Source: a virus | Lineage: Duplodnaviria > Heunggongvirae > Uroviricota > Caudoviricetes | IMG/VR virus record: IMGVR_UViG_2778261247_000010 | DNA: 6,502 bases | Reading direction: 5' to 3' (one strand) | Shown here: one piece after another, positions 1 through 6,502 of the stretch | How the letters are laid out: each line of letters begins with the position of its first letter | Position numbering within the stretch: position 1 is the first letter of the stretch | Made by a program: the position numbers and the translations under genes | Notes under the pieces: model-generated | What the model saw: the letters and a program-made list of their open reading frames with translations, nothing else | The model's database searches: none | What the model was told of the DNA's origin: nothing

Positions 1-2142
1 GAAGGCTCCAGACCAGGTACGCTGAATGATTTTCTCGGTGCCATGACGGAAGATGATGTCATGCCGGAGGCATTGCGTCGTTTTGAGGCAATGGTGGAAG
101 AAGTGGCACGCAACGCCGAAGCCGCCTCTCAGAGCGCAGCGGCGGCAAAGAAATCCGAAACTGCAGCGGCATCATCAAAGAACGCGGCGAAAACCTCAGA
201 AACGAATGCAGCTAATAGTGCACAGGCGGCAGCGACCTCAAAGACTGCATCGGCAAACTCCGCGACAGCAGCCAAAAAATCAGAAACCAACGCGAAAAAT
301 AGCGAGACAGCCGCAAAGACGAGCGAAACCAACGCAAAGTCCAGCCAGACGGCAGCGAAAACCAGCGAAACGAATGCCAAAGCCAGTGAAACTGCGGCAA
401 AAAACAGCCAGGTTGCAGCAGCCCAAAGCGAGAGCGCGGCAGCCGGTTCTGCGACTTCAGCAGCTGGATCAGCAACTGCTGCGGCTAACAGCCAGAAAGC
501 TGCGAAGACGAGTGAAACTAACGCAAAGTCCAGCCAGACGGCAGCGAAGACCAGCGAAACGAATGCCAAAGCCAGCGAAACTGCGGCGAAAAACAGCCAG
601 GTTGCAGCAGCCCAAAGCGAGAGCGCGGCAGCTGGTTCTGCAAGCGCGGCGGCTGCTTCTGCCACTGCATCAGCCAACAGTCAAAAAGCGGCAAAAACCA
701 GTGAAACCAATGCAAAGACAAGCGAGACTGCAGCGGCGAACTCGGCGAAAGCATCGGCAGCAAGCCAGACGGCTGCAAAAGCAAGTGAAGACGCAGCCAG
801 AGAGTATGCAAGCCAGGCTGCGGAGCCGTATAAACAAGTATTGCAGCCGCTTCCCGATGTGTGGATACCGTTTAACGATTCACTGGATATGATTACGGGC
901 TTTTCGCCGTCATATAAAAAGATTGTTATTGGTGATGATGAAATAACGATGCCTGGCGATAAGGTTGTAAAGTTTAAACGCGCATCAAAAGCAACTTACA
1001 TTAATAAATCTGGTGTGCTGACAGAGGCTGCCATTGACGAGCCACGATTTGAACGTGATGGCCTGCTTATTGAGGGGCAAAGAACAAACTACATGCTCAA
1101 TTCGGAAAACCCTGCCAGTTGGGGGCGATCGTCAAATATGGATGTTCCCGAAACCGGGAAGGATAGTTTTGGTTTTACCTATGGAAAGTTCGTCTGTAAC
1201 GATTCTCTGATTGGGCAAACCTCAGCCATTAATATGGCATCAATTGCTGCAACAAAGTCAGTTGATGTCTCAGGCTATAATAAATACGTGACAACCTCAT
1301 GTCGTTTTAAAACAGAACTGCAGGTAAGGTTGCGTATCCGGTTTGATAAATATGACGGTAGCGCAACAACTTTTCTTGGTGATGCGTATATTGATACACA
1401 AACGCTTGAAATTAATATGACAGGCGGTGCTGCCTCAAGGATTACAGCGAGAGTCAGAAAGGACGAAGCTACCGGATGGATTTTTGCAGAGGCAACAATT
1501 CAGGCAATTGATGGGGAGTTAAAAATAGGTTCTCAGATACAGTATTCTCCTAAGCAGGGCGGGGCAACCGTATCTGGTGACTATATTTATCTGGCCACCC
1601 CACAAGTAGAAAATGGGCCTTGTGTATCATCTTTTATTATATCAGGAACGACGGCGGCGACCCGCGCAAGCGATATAGTTACAGTTCCCATTAAGAATAA
1701 TCTTTATAATCTTCCTTTTACGGTTCTTTGTGAGGTACATAAGAACTGGTATAAAACGCCAAATGCAGCGCCGCGTGTTTTTGATACCGGCGGTCATCAA
1801 ACCGGAGCGGCTATTATTCTTGGGTTCGGATCTGCGGCAGATGGGCCAGACGGATTTCCTTATTGCGATATTGGAGGAGCTAACAGACGGGTAAACGAAA
1901 ACGCATCGCTTGAAAAAATGGTTATGGGGATGCGTGTAAAATCAGATCAGTCTACGTGCTCAGTAAGTAACGGGCGCATATCCAGCGAAAAAAAGACTAC
2001 GTGGTCCTATATTCAGAACTCTGCAACCATCCGTATTGGAGGCCAGACTACAGCAGGGTCACGTCATTTATTTGGTCATATCAGGAATTTCAGAATATGG
2101 CATAAGGCATTGACTGATGCTCAGGTGGGGGAGTCAATCTAA
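1..2142 (+). CDS. stf: Side tail fibre protein (Stf-like), 5'-partial: Ala/Ser/Thr-rich repeat shaft plus C-terminal LamG/ConA-like lectin-type domain
   Basis: Frame +1 has no stop from base 1 to the first ATG at 43, so the gene very probably starts upstream of the window (translation from base 1: EGSRPGTLNDFLGAMTEDD...). Nt ~43-830 encode a low-complexity A/S/T/K-rich shaft with reiterated KTSETNAK and AAKNSQ motifs typical of phage tail-fibre repeat regions. The C-terminus (...GSRHLFGHIRNFRIWHKALTDAQVGESI) has the characteristic ending of LamG/ConA-like lectin domains (inference). Stop TAA at 2140-2142. Confidence 0.88.
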   Translation, partial: EGSRPGTLNDFLGAMTEDDVMPEALRRFEAMVEEVARNAEAASQSAAAAKKSETAAASSKNAAKTSETNAANSAQAAATSKTASANSATAAKKSETNAKNSETAAKTSETNAKSSQTAAKTSETNAKASETAAKNSQVAAAQSESAAAGSATSAAGSATAAANSQKAAKTSETNAKSSQTAAKTSETNAKASETAAKNSQVAAAQSESAAAGSASAAAASATASANSQKAAKTSETNAKTSETAAANSAKASAASQTAAKASEDAAREYASQAAEPYKQVLQPLPDVWIPFNDSLDMITGFSPSYKKIVIGDDEITMPGDKVVKFKRASKATYINKSGVLTEAAIDEPRFERDGLLIEGQRTNYMLNSENPASWGRSSNMDVPETGKDSFGFTYGKFVCNDSLIGQTSAINMASIAATKSVDVSGYNKYVTTSCRFKTELQVRLRIRFDKYDGSATTFLGDAYIDTQTLEINMTGGAASRITARVRKDEATGWIFAEATIQAIDGELKIGSQIQYSPKQGGATVSGDYIYLATPQVENGPCVSSFIISGTTAATRASDIVTVPIKNNLYNLPFTVLCEVHKNWYKTPNAAPRVFDTGGHQTGAAIILGFGSAADGPDGFPYCDIGGANRRVNENASLEKMVMGMRVKSDQSTCSVSNGRISSEKKTTWSYIQNSATIRIGGQTTAGSRHLFGHIRNFRIWHKALTDAQVGESI
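313..641 (+). repeat. Intragenic in-frame tandem duplication (two ~140-bp copies, period 189 bp) inside the tail-fibre shaft
   Basis: Copy 1 ~313-452 and copy 2 ~502-641 differ at about 7 positions by eye, all at synonymous third-codon positions (agc/agt, acc/act, aaa/aag, gca/gcg, gcc/gct). Both encode the identical 48-aa block AAKTSETNAKSSQTAAKTSETNAKASETAAKNSQVAAAQSESAAAGSA. Confidence 0.9.
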
Positions 2143-2423
2143 TGAAAGATTTAACACTCAAATTTGCAGACAGGGCCGACTTTTCGGCCTTTATGGAGAG
2201 CACTGGCTATTATGATGACGAGTCGATGCAGGATAATATTCTTATTGACGTGATAGGTAACGTGTACAAAGAAACCGGAGAACTGACTGAAGATGGCGAA
2301 CCGGTATGTGTTAAGGAAGACGGATATTTTGTAAACGTGCGCATCATTAATGATGCAAAAAAATCGTCAATATTCGATAAATACGAGGTTGTTGTTGAGC
2401 ATCAACTTCGTGGCTGGATGTGA
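2142..2423 (+). CDS. Hypothetical small acidic protein (93 aa), translationally coupled to the tail-fibre gene; possible fibre accessory or assembly factor
   Basis: ATG at 2142 shares one base with the upstream TAA (cTAATG). SD GGGGGAG at 2127-2133 with 8-nt spacer. Product is D/E-rich with no hydrophobic segment. No family recognised from sequence alone. Stop TGA at 2421-2423 lies 9 bp before the next gene. Confidence 0.7.
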   Translation: MKDLTLKFADRADFSAFMESTGYYDDESMQDNILIDVIGNVYKETGELTEDGEPVCVKEDGYFVNVRIINDAKKSSIFDKYEVVVEHQLRGWM

Positions 2424-2432
2424 GGGAGACAA

Positions 2433-3473
2433 ATGGCTACATCGACAGTAATTCCTGATGACATCAAAACGCTAAAATCCGACGTTAGCAAATTAAAAAA
2501 CGATCAAGGAAGCTACGCAACAAAATCATATGTAGACAGCAAAGATGAAACCGTTGGTGACTGGTCTGCTTCATGGTATCAGCAGGTATTGCCAACTAGC
2601 GGAGCTATATTTGGGAGAAAACTCCGCTCAACTCACAGGACGGCAGGTGTTGAGGATGCGTATTGCGAACTATATCTCAAAAAATGGATAGACAGTCCAG
2701 GTAACGCAATGGCGCGCCTTAACCTGAACGATAACGGGAAAAACATTTGCTGGGACTTTACCAACCTTTATGGCGGTACGATGATTTTTCCCGGTGACAG
2801 CGGATACCTCAAAATGGGTAACTGCCTTATGTCATACAGCAAACGTGGAAGTAACGCGCTTATTAAATTTGATTACACCGACACATTACAGATCAAATAT
2901 GCTAATCATGGGTCAACCATGACATTAACCACACAGGGATCCGCTCACGCTGGCGTAACAACTAGACTATGGGGTAATTCTAGCCGTCCGGTTGTTTATG
3001 AAGTTGGCGTAGATGAGGCTCTGTATATGTTCTACGCACAGAAAACTACCAGCAATACCTACGAATTAACGGTTAACGGCGCGTGCAATGCAAGTGCATT
3101 TAATCAAGGCTCTGACCGGGATCTGAAAGACAATATTCAGGTGATCGATAATGCAACCGACCGCATTCGTAAAATGAACGGCTATACATACACGCTTAAA
3201 GAAAACGGTATGCCTTACGCTGGTGTTATTGCACAAGAAACCCTGGAAGCCATCCCCGAAGCCGTAGGGTCTATGATGAAATATCCAGACGGCGGGAGTG
3301 GATTAGATGGAGAAGAAGGTGAACGGTATTACACAGTAGATTATTCTGGTGTTACTGGCTTGCTTGTTCAGGTAGCCAGAGAGTCGGACGACAGAATAAC
3401 AGCACTGGAAGAAGAAAACGCAGAATTAAGACAAAGATTATCTGCAATTGAGGCGGCGCTTGCGTCTAAATAA
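2433..3473 (+). CDS. Tail fibre/tailspike-like protein with C-terminal self-cleaving intramolecular chaperone domain (peptidase S74-like)
   Basis: SD GAGGGAG at 2422-2428, ATG at 2433. From Ser227 (nt 3111) the sequence G-S-D-R-D-L-K-D-N-I-Q-V-I-D-N-A-T-D-R-I-R-K-M-N-G-Y-T-Y-T-L-K...AGVIAQE...PEAV shows the Ser/Lys dyad spaced five residues apart (S227, K232) and downstream motifs typical of the S74 chaperone domain of endosialidases and L-shaped tail fibres. Ends in a coiled-coil-like segment ITALEEENAELRQRLSAIEAALASK. The N-terminal ~226 aa would be the mature fibre part. Confidence 0.75.
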   Translation: MATSTVIPDDIKTLKSDVSKLKNDQGSYATKSYVDSKDETVGDWSASWYQQVLPTSGAIFGRKLRSTHRTAGVEDAYCELYLKKWIDSPGNAMARLNLNDNGKNICWDFTNLYGGTMIFPGDSGYLKMGNCLMSYSKRGSNALIKFDYTDTLQIKYANHGSTMTLTTQGSAHAGVTTRLWGNSSRPVVYEVGVDEALYMFYAQKTTSNTYELTVNGACNASAFNQGSDRDLKDNIQVIDNATDRIRKMNGYTYTLKENGMPYAGVIAQETLEAIPEAVGSMMKYPDGGSGLDGEEGERYYTVDYSGVTGLLVQVARESDDRITALEEENAELRQRLSAIEAALASK

Positions 3474-3478
3474 TATTA

Positions 3479-3502
3479 AGGGGCCGAGCGCCCCGTTTTA
3501 TT
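3479..3502 (+). terminator. Rho-independent terminator after the fibre operon
   Basis: GC hairpin GGGGC-cgagc-GCCCC (3480-3494) followed by GTTTTATT, immediately after the TAA stop at 3471-3473. Confidence 0.6.
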
Positions 3503-3515
3503 GGGTAGGATGAAA

Positions 3516-3803
3516 ATGGATATAACACCTTTCCTTCATGCACTTTGTGCTGTGGCTGCGCAGCTACTGATTGGTCTTTTTACCGGGAACTGGGCTTACG
3601 GGGCGATAGCCGGTTGTACGTTCTTCATTGCGCGTGAACACACCCAGGCAGAATATCGCTGGATTGAAATGTTCGGGCATGGCAAGCGTATGAATATGCC
3701 GTGGTGGGGCGGTTTTGATCTACGCGCGTGGGATGTAGCAAGCCTGATGGATTTTGCTGTGCCGGTGGTGGCGTGTTTACTTGTATTTATATTTTTTGAA
3801 TAA
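3516..3803 (+). CDS. Small integral membrane protein (~95 aa, three predicted hydrophobic helices); moron-type accessory gene candidate
   Basis: The ORF track begins at TTG 3501 (MGRMKMDIT...). ATG at 3516 preceded by AGGA (3507-3510, 5-nt spacer) is the better supported start; ATG 3510 is also possible. Hydrophobic segments FLHALCAVAAQLLIGLF, AYGAIAGCTFFIA and LMDFAVPVVACLLVFIFF. No family recognised. Stop TAA at 3801-3803. The gene is bracketed by hairpin terminators on both sides. Confidence 0.65.
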   Translation: MDITPFLHALCAVAAQLLIGLFTGNWAYGAIAGCTFFIAREHTQAEYRWIEMFGHGKRMNMPWWGGFDLRAWDVASLMDFAVPVVACLLVFIFFE

Positions 3804-3808
3804 AATTA

Positions 3809-3835
3809 AGACCCCATCTATAACTGATGGGGTCT
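3809..3835. terminator. Bidirectional intrinsic terminator between convergent genes (membrane-protein ORF and sopB)
   Basis: Perfect 10-bp stem AGACCCCATC (3809-3818) / GATGGGGTCT (3826-3835) with 7-nt loop TATAACT. T-rich runs follow on both strands (ATTCTATTTTCT on +; TAATTTTATT on -). Sits between the + strand stop at 3803 and the - strand sopB stop at 3852-3854. Confidence 0.8.
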
Positions 3836-3851
3836 ATTCTATTTTCTGCTA

Positions 3852-4841
3852 TTAGTTATTTTTTACATCGGAAGAATTTCCAAACGCCTCCTCAAGAATA
3901 GATTCAATTTTACTCATTAGGTGCGATGGTATTTTTCTGTTATCTAATTTTAATGTTGTGAAATTTTTCCCATATTTCGCCACAACACCGTCTCCATATT
4001 TCTTTTCCCTTTTCTCTCCATGTGAATTGTTTTTCTCAACAATAATGAAATCATGAAGAGCCTGTATTATTCTTTGCGCATCTAAACTTTCACCTGATTT
4101 TTTCATCCTCAGCAACTGAGATGCAGCATTTTTCATGGCTGCTTCCTGTCCCTGATATGCTTTAAAAAGAGCGTCTCCTGCTCTGGCTGATAACTCACCA
4201 GGATGGTTAAATATTGCCAATATATCTTTAGGTAAACCGGCTGTATTAATACATCGGCTGATAATATTTCTATCCACGCCTTCGGCTTCAGCTAAAGATT
4301 TTACGTTACCGTCAAATTCATGGAGCCTTCGCAGGTATCTTTTCCCCCTTTCATAGGCGCTGATAGGTCTATAGTCGTTGCCTATCTGCGATAACCATTG
4401 CATTTGTTCATCATCTAAATCGCCAATAAGAACACGATAATCGCATCCAGTTATAATGGCTGCTTTACGTCTTCGAGAACCATCAGCTACTTCAACAATA
4501 CCTGACACTTTTCTTGCGAAAGCCGGATTTTGTTGCCCAGAAGTTAGAAAAGATGGAATTAAATCAGCTAGAGAAGATTCATTTAATAAATCTTGATCAC
4601 GCTCATTACCTAGCCATACCATTGTTGCCATTTCTACTTTATCTGCGGGGATCGTCTCTAACTTAAAGTTAACATTACGTCCGCATACTGGCAAAGTTAT
4701 GCTATTACCGGTTAATGAACTCAGTTGACGTTTTAAATCACCAACCATAGGTGATACCGGCTGATGTTCAGGTGCATGATGATTATTACTCATAATGCGA
4801 TTAATATCCGGAGCATTTTTTAGAAGAGAGCGTTGTTTCAT
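3852..4841 (-). CDS. sopB: Plasmid partition protein SopB (ParB family, F-type centromere-binding protein)
   Basis: 329 aa. By-eye similarity to F-plasmid SopB over conserved blocks (GNERDQ.LL.E..L.DLIPSFL.TGQQ.PAF.R.VSG..E.ADGSRRRKAA; GNDYRP.SAYERG.RY; RCINTA.LPK...A.F.HPGELSAR.GDAL.KA). SD GGGAG 8 nt upstream of the start. ATG at 4839-4841 overlaps the sopA stop (ATGA, 4838-4841), implying translational coupling. Confidence 0.95.
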   Translation of the reverse strand: MKQRSLLKNAPDINRIMSNNHHAPEHQPVSPMVGDLKRQLSSLTGNSITLPVCGRNVNFKLETIPADKVEMATMVWLGNERDQDLLNESSLADLIPSFLTSGQQNPAFARKVSGIVEVADGSRRRKAAIITGCDYRVLIGDLDDEQMQWLSQIGNDYRPISAYERGKRYLRRLHEFDGNVKSLAEAEGVDRNIISRCINTAGLPKDILAIFNHPGELSARAGDALFKAYQGQEAAMKNAASQLLRMKKSGESLDAQRIIQALHDFIIVEKNNSHGEKREKKYGDGVVAKYGKNFTTLKLDNRKIPSHLMSKIESILEEAFGNSSDVKNN

Positions 4842-6007
4842 TCTTCGTTCTCCCAGCGAGGTTTTATTAGATCATCAAAAATTTCTCGACAAACAGGGTC
4901 CCATATAGAGACGGCATTTCTCCATGCATTAAGTGTTGAACGCTGGTTTGCCGCTTGTTCAAATACTGTTCGCATTTTTATCTGACCTTTACCTACTTCA
5001 TCGGTAACGCGTACAACCTGACGTAATACCATTGATCCCCATGTATTTCTTATTTGCTCTTCCATCCATCGTGATTGATTTCCTGTAGTGAGACTATATT
5101 TAGTCAGAAGCAAGCGAACGGTCGGCTCAAATCCGCCTAGGTCAACGCTTTCTAGGAGATCGAGAAGCATTGTGAAAAACTGTAGAACAGAGGCGTAATC
5201 AAATAATTCTGCAGGGGTAGCAACAACGATAACGTCAGCTGCGCAAACAACGTTAATGGTTCCTGTACCGAGGTTTGGAGCACTATCTATAACGATAACA
5301 TCGTAGTTATCCCAAACTGATTCTATAGCTGCGCGTAGCATCAGGTGAGGAGGGTGAGGCAATTTACCCTGAGCATGATATTGCATGAGATCTGTTTCTA
5401 TACGGTGTAAAGCTAGGCAGCTAGGAATAATGTCCAGTCCAGGCCAGCATGTTGGTTTTATAGCATATTCAGCGTTATCGCGTTCGCCCAAGTAAAATGG
5501 CAGTAAAGTATCCTCGGCATGTATATGTAAATCAGGTACATAACCGTGATACATGGAGGCTGTTCCCTGAGGATCGTTACCTTCAACTAAAAGAACACGA
5601 TGACCTTGTAATGCTAGCCATTGTGCCTGATGTACTGCAGACGATGTTTTATAAACTCCGCCTTTGTGTGACATAACAGCAAGCACAACTGGGTTTTTAT
5701 CTTGTGGCCGTTGGTTTGGGTTGCCAAAAACAGCTCGCATACTATTGATTTGATCTATGGTATAACCGGCACGACGTTCAACTCTTCCTCTCATTTCAAA
5801 GTCAGGTGCAGGTAAACGCCCGTTCTTCTCAGCATCTCTTATTGCTTGAGGAGTTACACCAATTAAATCTGCTACTTCAGTTATCCCCCATCTACGCGTG
5901 ATACGCCGAGCTTCAGGACTATCATCACCGAATTGAGCTATAGCAATTGCTTGGGTCATTTCTTGACCGCGCGTAACACAATCTTGTAATAACTTTTTCA
6001 AAGACAT
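4838..6007 (-). CDS. sopA: Plasmid partition ATPase SopA (type Ia ParA with N-terminal HTH autoregulatory extension)
   Basis: 389 aa. Deviant Walker A KGGVYKTS, A' region VLLVEGNDPQGTASMYHG, Walker B DVIVIDSAPNLG. N-terminal region ...AIAIAQFGDDSPEARRITRRWGITEVADLIGVTPQAIRDAEKNGRLP... is near-colinear with F SopA as recalled. SD GGAG (minus strand, + coordinates 6016-6019) 8 nt before the ATG at 6007. Confidence 0.96.
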   Translation of the reverse strand: MSLKKLLQDCVTRGQEMTQAIAIAQFGDDSPEARRITRRWGITEVADLIGVTPQAIRDAEKNGRLPAPDFEMRGRVERRAGYTIDQINSMRAVFGNPNQRPQDKNPVVLAVMSHKGGVYKTSSAVHQAQWLALQGHRVLLVEGNDPQGTASMYHGYVPDLHIHAEDTLLPFYLGERDNAEYAIKPTCWPGLDIIPSCLALHRIETDLMQYHAQGKLPHPPHLMLRAAIESVWDNYDVIVIDSAPNLGTGTINVVCAADVIVVATPAELFDYASVLQFFTMLLDLLESVDLGGFEPTVRLLLTKYSLTTGNQSRWMEEQIRNTWGSMVLRQVVRVTDEVGKGQIKMRTVFEQAANQRSTLNAWRNAVSIWDPVCREIFDDLIKPRWENEE

Positions 6008-6294: not shown

Positions 6295-6437
6295 AAAGAA
6301 CACAATCAAAGATCGTAAAACAACAATAATAATTCACACAAAATAAAGAACACAAATACAGAAAACAACAACACAATAAAAACAAGAGAACACAAGCTAT
6401 AAATATTACACCAATAGAGAACACTAATCAAGAACAT
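6295..6437 (+). repeat. Array of phased GAACAC(A) direct repeats in an A+C-rich tract flanking the telomere-resolution palindrome (candidate protelomerase or accessory binding sites)
   Basis: GAACACAA at 6298-6305, 6348-6355 and 6388-6395; GAACAC at 6419-6424; GAACAT at 6432-6437, the last inside the palindrome arm. Start-to-start spacing is 50, 40, 31 and 13 bp. The + strand of ~6288-6426 is roughly 80% A+C by eye. Confidence 0.7.
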
Positions 6438-6502
6438 ATCAGCACATAATTTCCCATTATACGCGCGTATAATGGGAAATTATGTGCTGATATGTTCTTG
6501 AT
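6427..6502. other. Telomere resolution site (tos/telRL-like protelomerase target): perfect 76-bp palindrome
   Basis: Arms 6427-6464 (ATCAAGAACATATCAGCACATAATTTCCCATTATACGC) and 6465-6502 are exact reverse complements, centred on ACGCGCGT. The core TATCAGCACAtAATTtCCCATTATACGCGCGTATAATGG closely matches the N15 telRL as I recall it, with the central telO-like segment identical. The palindrome reaches the last base of the window. Confidence 0.8.

Follow-up and report, generated by a model that had tools for sequence, protein, structure and literature searches.

A mirrored contig end that probably reads around the sop-side hairpin telomere of an N15-like phage-plasmid

A 6,502-nt stretch of viral DNA (the window) closes on an inverted repeat whose right arm runs to the final base, which raises the question of whether the bases beyond the centre of symmetry are unique sequence or a second copy, on the other strand, of bases already present. 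A repeat search of the window returned a perfect 76-bp palindrome with two arms of 38 nt (6427-6464 and 6465-6502), 100% complementary and joined by a spacer of 0 nt. From the base composition of the window, 1.4e-19 centres with a perfect arm of this length are expected by chance, and the runner-up perfect arm elsewhere in the window measures 8 nt. Single-strand folding of the 76-mer as DNA gives one hairpin of -38.1 kcal/mol (z = -16.8 against shuffled sequences). A sequence-only reading of this stretch had described a flawless mirror about 6464/6465 that extends to 6502, and had suggested that the window stops at a contig terminus; both descriptions were borne out.

The source record confirms the terminus: the window is identical, base for base, to the entire 6502-bp contig NODY01000058.1 (GCA_002517525.1). 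Because it is all of that contig, 6502 is a true contig end, and the inverted duplication reaches the very end of the contig. The partial tail-fibre product that starts from base 1 has been recorded on one contig only, again NODY01000058.1. Among complete E. coli genomes and PLSDB plasmids we found no record identical to the window, the best match having 98.5% identity, and part of the window was matched in 4827 of 5426 complete E. coli genomes. Since bases 1-3776 recur in lambdoid prophages, the break at base 1 can be attributed to a repeat; a break of this kind, inside a tail-fibre module, has the usual cause of short-read contig breaks.

The genes of the window (Table 1) place the palindrome in context. 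Open reading frames follow one another in the order stf, a 93-aa frame, the Peptidase_S74 fibre, a frame of roughly 100 aa, sopB and sopA, and past the sop genes some 450 bp of A+T-rich DNA end in the palindrome. The stf frame is open from base 1, where residue 1 of the frame opens the phage_tail_N match at profile position 93, and it is called on the source contig as a 713-aa partial product. The tail-fibre module (1-3776) is 94-98% identical to lambdoid phages and chromosomal prophages (2G7b, Tritos and many chromosomes); because this module resembles lambdoid prophages and the sop-tel part does not, the element appears to be mosaic at about 3776-3850. NODY01000058.1, which ends at the telomere, contains no protelomerase gene, as is to be expected of a linear prophage, in which telN sits at the opposite end of the molecule. 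The exact 389-aa SopA was found in 2565 blocks of an assembly collection, and in most of these blocks the longest contig carrying it is only 2-10 kb. These counts and contig sizes suggest that the phage-plasmid lineage is very common and that its sop-telomere end typically forms a short terminal contig.

Table 1. Coordinates of genes and telomere features in the 6,502-nt window
Feature	Position	Strand	Basis
Side tail-fibre gene (stf), 5'-truncated by the contig start	1..2142	+	Pfam phage_tail_N
Tail-fibre protein with C-terminal Peptidase_S74 (intramolecular chaperone) domain	2433..3473	+	Pfam PF13884, E = 8.7e-14
sopB/parB partition gene	3852..4841	-	Pfam SoPB_HTH, E = 1.6e-23; ParB annotated in PhiR46_1
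sopA/parA partition ATPase gene	4838..6007	-	Pfam AAA_31 and CbiA; placed relative to the tel site like N15 gene 28
A+T-rich telomere-proximal region	6298..6437	+	GAACAC at 6298, 6348, 6388 and 6419; GAACA at 6432
Sop-side tel half (telR half-site, 27 nt)	6438..6464	.	27-nt arms in intact relatives; 'telR site' of PhiR46_1
Left half of telO core	6454-6464	.	22-mer same as in N15
Dyad centre	6464..6465	.	Centre of palindrome; matches N15 annotation 'cut at 24802/3' in mid-telRL
Probable wrap-around copy, reverse complement of 6427-6464	6465..6502	.	Sop-side mirror at arm positions 28-38; end point of the k = 77 walk at 6502
Diagnostic bases ATGTTCTTGAT	6492-6502	.	Mirror the sop side, against TTT[C/T]AGAACAA in relatives

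Several features identify the palindrome as part of a tel site: firstly, the exact 22-mer telO core CCATTATACGCGCGTATAATGG lies at 6454-6475 and is identical in N15, where it falls at the annotated telRL; secondly, a sopAB/parAB operon adjoins the site (3852-6007), and lambdoid structural genes, the tail fibres, occupy 1-3473; thirdly, in intact relatives and in N15 inverted-repeat arms (27 nt and 28 nt, respectively) widen the core to some 54-56 bp and then give way to unique sequence. Of the two arms in the window, the sop-side one alone is genuine. Judged by these features, the element is an E. coli N15-like phage-plasmid. The window holds its telR side, because the related phage PhiR46_1 has its ParA-side end annotated as telR and its telN-side end as telL.

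The GAACAC and GAACA motifs listed in Table 1 all lie on one strand within 170 nt before the tel arm, and in the intact relative OY754439.1 (locus L002, 9239-9325) the complementary motif TGTGTT is found at +70, +95 and +152, on the telN side. These motifs resemble the flanking inverted repeats of the N15 tos site, and we take them to be putative accessory protelomerase-binding repeats. Arm position 13 (6452 in the window) is polymorphic on the sop side, reading TTTCCC, TTCCCC, TTCTCC or TTGCCC; since the two arms disagree at this position in L002 and L032, natural sites can fall short of a perfect palindrome. In relatives whose site is intact, a protelomerase gene lies about 190 bp to its right. 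The 631-aa product of this gene in OY754439.1 has TelK_N, muzzle, catalytic and stirrup domains (four TelK/ResT Pfam domains) and matches the TelK structure 2V6E with E = 3e-293. Among GTDB species representatives, exact telO occurs at one locus, in Pseudocitrobacter vendiensis (NZ_CALSBS010000033.1, L019), a record of unit phage-plasmid size (46,169 bp) in which the site is internal and first becomes asymmetric at arm position 28.

We compared the bases to the right of the centre with six internal-site loci that carry an exact or near-exact copy of the sop-side arm of the window (L002, L016, L017, L021, L032 and L035). To the right of the centre each of them reads GCGTATAATGGG[A/G]AATTATGT[G/C]CTGAT, then TTT[C/T]AGAACAAAGTCAAG, such that arm positions 28 onward read TTT[C/T]AGAACAA; the start of PhiR46_1 reads like this telN-side sequence. 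The telN-side arm that serves as reference for bases beyond 6464 is GCGTATAATGGGAAATTATGTGCTGATTTTCAGAACAAAG... The window instead has GCGTATAATGGGAAATTATGTGCTGAT, then ATGTTCTTGAT, and these last 11 bases (arm positions 28-38) are the exact complement of its own 6427-6437; for 11 additional symmetric positions the chance expectation is 2.7e-7. Because they mirror the sop side, 6492-6502 are incompatible with the telN side of an uncut telRL. The mirror is thus longer than the natural palindrome of an uncut site, positions 28-38 being symmetric here but in none of the six intact relatives.

A wider set of 15 internal sites (L002, L016, L017, L019, L021, L025, L026, L031, L032, L035, L037, L038, L039, L041 and N15) gave the same picture: symmetry was first broken at arm position 12, 13, 22 or 28 in every one, and in none did it extend beyond 27-28 nt per arm. 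Two other candidate markers of a fold-back were set aside. Arm position 13, A in the window and G in OY754439.1, is also A on the telN side of PhiR46_1, L016 and L035. The pattern of core plus 38-nt arm is unspecific, also matching intact sites on the opposite strand (L016).

We simulated a canonical k-mer walk along the unique strand of the window joined to its own reverse complement, the template that a polymerase copies when it goes round the hairpin. Such a walk halts when it would next take up the reverse complement of a k-mer that it has passed before, which happens (k-1)/2 bases beyond the centre. At k = 77 the walk round the hairpin ended 38 nt past the centre, at 6502, the last base of the contig, which suggests k = 77 for the assembler behind GCA_002517525.1. 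A walk across intact telRL passed through for k of at least 55, and it stalled only at small k, when the natural 54-bp palindrome was perfect.

Searching metagenome contigs for the telO 22-mer yielded 23 loci. The tel site lay no more than 63 nt from a contig or locus end in 13 of them, and all 13 were mirrored to the final base, with a single mismatch in one (L033) as the sole exception. Their overhangs measured 16, 19, 19, 21, 26, 27, 27, 29, 38, 63, 63, 63 and 63 nt. Of these lengths, 16, 27, 38 and 63 nt correspond to k of 33, 55, 77 and 127, and 19 and 29 nt to k of 39 and 59, all common SPAdes or MEGAHIT values; the overhangs of 21 and 26 nt match none of the commonly known default k values. 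The 51.8-kb contig OJJJ01000118.1 has a 63-nt overhang at each end, as expected for a whole linear prophage. Assembler behaviour varies, since at least one SPAdes-style contig (L005, 90,054 bp) is folded back completely instead of stopping at (k-1)/2.

Deposited records fall into line with these contigs. In PLSDB and the complete genomes, matches that end at query 6491, 27 nt past the centre, belong to unit-length records of 45-47 kb; matches that reach 6502 belong to records of aberrant size, from 11.2 to 91.5 kb (for example 14.5, 62.6, 75 and 91.5 kb), or to a chromosome record. Nearly all of the longest contigs with an identical SopA are fold-backs in which the sopA genes are mirrored. In CP088430.1 (L001) the mirror continues more than 100 nt beyond the centre.

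Individual records illustrate how such fold-backs have been deposited. CP088430.1, labelled 'circular', is 91,525 bp long, about twice unit length, and mirrored about the dyad. NZ_CP101203.1, a 14,498-bp 'plasmid' in the RefSeq complete genome of strain EC21Z-151, has its tel dyad at 7249, exactly half the record, and so appears to be entirely a fold-back of a prophage end; the same strain also has a 46,173-bp plasmid record, NZ_CP101200.1, which ends 47 nt before the tip. In the chromosome record of E. coli YDC107, positions 6767-27936 of CP025707.1 (L011) contain a fold-back of a phage-plasmid end with at least 9.5 kb per arm and with the genes fragmented in one arm. This strain has a separate unit-length phage record as well, CP025712.1, which matches only the 54-bp symmetric core (query 39-92). 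The CP025707.1 fold-back is probably a long-read wrap-around that was misjoined into the chromosome.

Taken together, the mirror beyond 27 nt, the terminal overhangs of other contigs and the stop expected at k = 77 argue that 6465-6502 is the strand read around the sop-side telomere and not an uncut telRL. We consider it likely, from the contig alone, that the element is a linear N15-like prophage with hairpin ends, that the contig ends at telR and that 6465-6502 belongs to the other strand. The source would be a short-read assembly of an E. coli strain in which an N15-like phage-plasmid resides as a linear prophage, closed covalently by a hairpin at each end. The contig would start at the repeat in the tail-fibre gene, pass through sopB and sopA and reach the sop-side telomere, where some of the sequenced molecules would have gone round the tip at 6464/6465 onto the complementary strand. 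The assembly graph would then have followed the palindrome until its k-mers were the reverse complements of those already used, and stopped (k-1)/2 = 38 bases past the centre for k = 77; 6465-6502 would accordingly be the same DNA as 6427-6464.

Protelomerases such as TelN and TelK cut telRL in both strands, a few bases from the dyad on each side, and rejoin each strand to its complement, which leaves two covalently closed hairpins as the prophage ends. In this element the hairpins would presumably be made by a protelomerase, as they are in N15 and phiKO2, and 6464/6465 would by the same analogy be the tip of a covalently closed hairpin, the true physical end of the prophage DNA. Covalently closed ends in the prophage state are thus a prediction to which the mirrored overhang lends indirect support. 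The sequence-only reading had proposed that the 38 bases right of the dyad are complementary strand at a hairpin end and not unique sequence, with an intact, uncut telRL, as in virion DNA or a circular intermediate, as the alternative. The first proposal gains support from the whole-contig status of the window, from the N15-like sopBA genes and tel site, and from positions 28-38, which mirror the sop side; the alternative is rejected on those same positions, in which telN-side sequence is lacking.

A different origin of the mirrored bases has a modest chance of being right: they may come not from a hairpin but from double-stranded telR-telR' junctions, in head-to-head dimers or Y-shaped intermediates that protelomerase had yet to resolve. 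Such a junction predicts the same sequence as is seen here. A Y-adapter on the open end of a hairpin fragment can yield an amplifiable molecule, which counts against the need for a junction. Two further points do so: telR-telR' junctions are expected to be rare and transient, as compared with two hairpins per plasmid copy, and the overhang pattern recurs across many unrelated assemblies. According to PMC3558466, a replicated telomere is a perfect palindrome that protelomerase resolves again, and protelomerases act on palindromic junctions of this kind in replicated chromosomes. In Borrelia, folded hairpins reportedly blocked Illumina adapter ligation and amplification, such that no short reads covered the wrap-around (10.1101/2025.07.18.665644). 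This would speak for double-stranded molecules as the source of short reads, and we keep the junction as an alternative because that preprint found no Illumina coverage across wrap-arounds.

Less probable again, and in our estimate a long shot, is a real and reasonably abundant double-stranded telR-telR' palindrome, either as a head-to-head dimer that is stable or as a replication intermediate that has accumulated unresolved; if present, it would point to inefficient telomere resolution in the strain. Because hairpins are found on every plasmid copy, the mirrored reads more probably came from the hairpin itself, by read-through, than from a replicated junction. Whichever source applies, the DNA truly ends at 6464/6465 and 6465-6502 contributes no sequence of its own, so that under the junction explanation too the contig ends at a telomere and these bases are not unique.

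That the window instead contains an intact, uncut telRL, from a virion, a circular intermediate or a circularised assembly, and that the contig broke inside it by accident, is highly improbable. Bases 6465-6491 are identical to the telN-side arm of PhiR46_1, L016 and L035, and a perfect 54-bp palindrome can halt a walk at k of 53 or less (the case of k = 33). The argument fails beyond that arm: 6492-6502 follows the sop-side mirror where all six intact relatives sharing the arm have their common telN-side sequence, none of the 15 internal sites shares such extended symmetry, and assembly at k of at least 55 runs through an intact site. An uncut telRL would need a relative in which the telN-side arm naturally begins ...GCTGATATGTTCTTGAT and is followed by telN. 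As for a random inverted chimera produced by snap-back synthesis during library preparation or amplification, or a chance palindrome, neither linked to a telomere, whole-genome amplification is known to produce inverted chimeric reads (PMC6218980 and PMC13265396), but the centre matches, to the base, the dyad of the 22-bp core shared with N15 telO and the annotated N15 cut, the same centre is the fold-back point in more than 10 independent assemblies, and the expectation for a chance palindrome is ~1e-19, which makes this the least credible explanation of all.

The reading of 6465-6502 as strand carried round the sop-side hairpin has practical consequences. These bases should be trimmed or flagged as an other-strand duplicate of 6427-6464, and the contig should be taken to stop at the actual end of the replicon rather than at a gap. 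In draft assemblies, the ends of linear N15-like prophages are identified by flawless symmetry around the telO centre that continues past arm position 27 to a contig end, and the same signature exposes fold-backs deposited as 'complete' plasmids or embedded in chromosome records. For the assembly at hand it predicts that the telN contig of NODY01 should end 38 nt past the dyad with the mirror of ...TTGTTCTGAAAATCAGC. The phage-plasmid papers 10.1101/2025.09.12.675607 and PMC12042878 do not mention palindromic contig ends. Telomere phages of the N15 type are already well characterised and widespread, as are the tel sites and protelomerases they carry, and the finding is an ordinary one that reveals no new biology.

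Among known systems, the closest model is N15 (Ravinvirus N15, NC_001901), with which the element shares a palindrome 90% identical to telRL over 61 nt, the gene order parB-parA-tel site-telN (telN being seen in the intact relative L002), a sop pair corresponding to N15 genes 27-28, and lambdoid tail genes. It differs in that intact relatives of its lineage have 27-nt arms that often form a perfect 54-bp palindrome, whereas N15 has 28-nt arms that are asymmetric at positions 12 and 14; the sop-side arm of the window matches that of N15 at 36 of 45 positions, and the window presents what is probably a resolved telomere, as a fold-back, and not telRL. The Klebsiella phage phiKO2 is similar in its telRL, 87% identical to the window over 61 nt, and in its protelomerase TelK (PDB 2V6E), which is matched by that of L002, but it has another host genus and other flanking genes.

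The closest records by sequence include Escherichia phage PhiR46_1 (PV340565.1) and the E. coli plasmid records OY754439.1 and NZ_CP101200.1, which have 94-97% nucleotide identity over 74-80% of the window (97% for PhiR46_1) and a sop-side arm identical to that of the window; several E. coli plasmids of roughly 46 kb are also among them. PhiR46_1 was deposited as a linear molecule with a 'telL site' at the telN end and a 'telR site' at the ParA end. Its match stops within the telO core (query 6475), that of NZ_CP101200.1 stops at query 6417 and OY754439.1 runs on into telN; the 38-nt mirrored overhang is absent from all three.

The overhang itself has its counterpart in Borrelia, where a terminal inverse duplication, or 'hairpin wrap-around', has been described as the assembly signature of hairpin telomeres and used as a criterion that a contig reaches the hairpin (10.1101/2025.07.18.665644). 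Here as there, a perfect inverted duplication stands at the contig end and its inversion point corresponds to the telomere tip. The Borrelia duplications come from long reads and range from 68 bp to 18 kb, whereas the window has a 38-nt overhang from what is apparently a short-read de Bruijn assembly.
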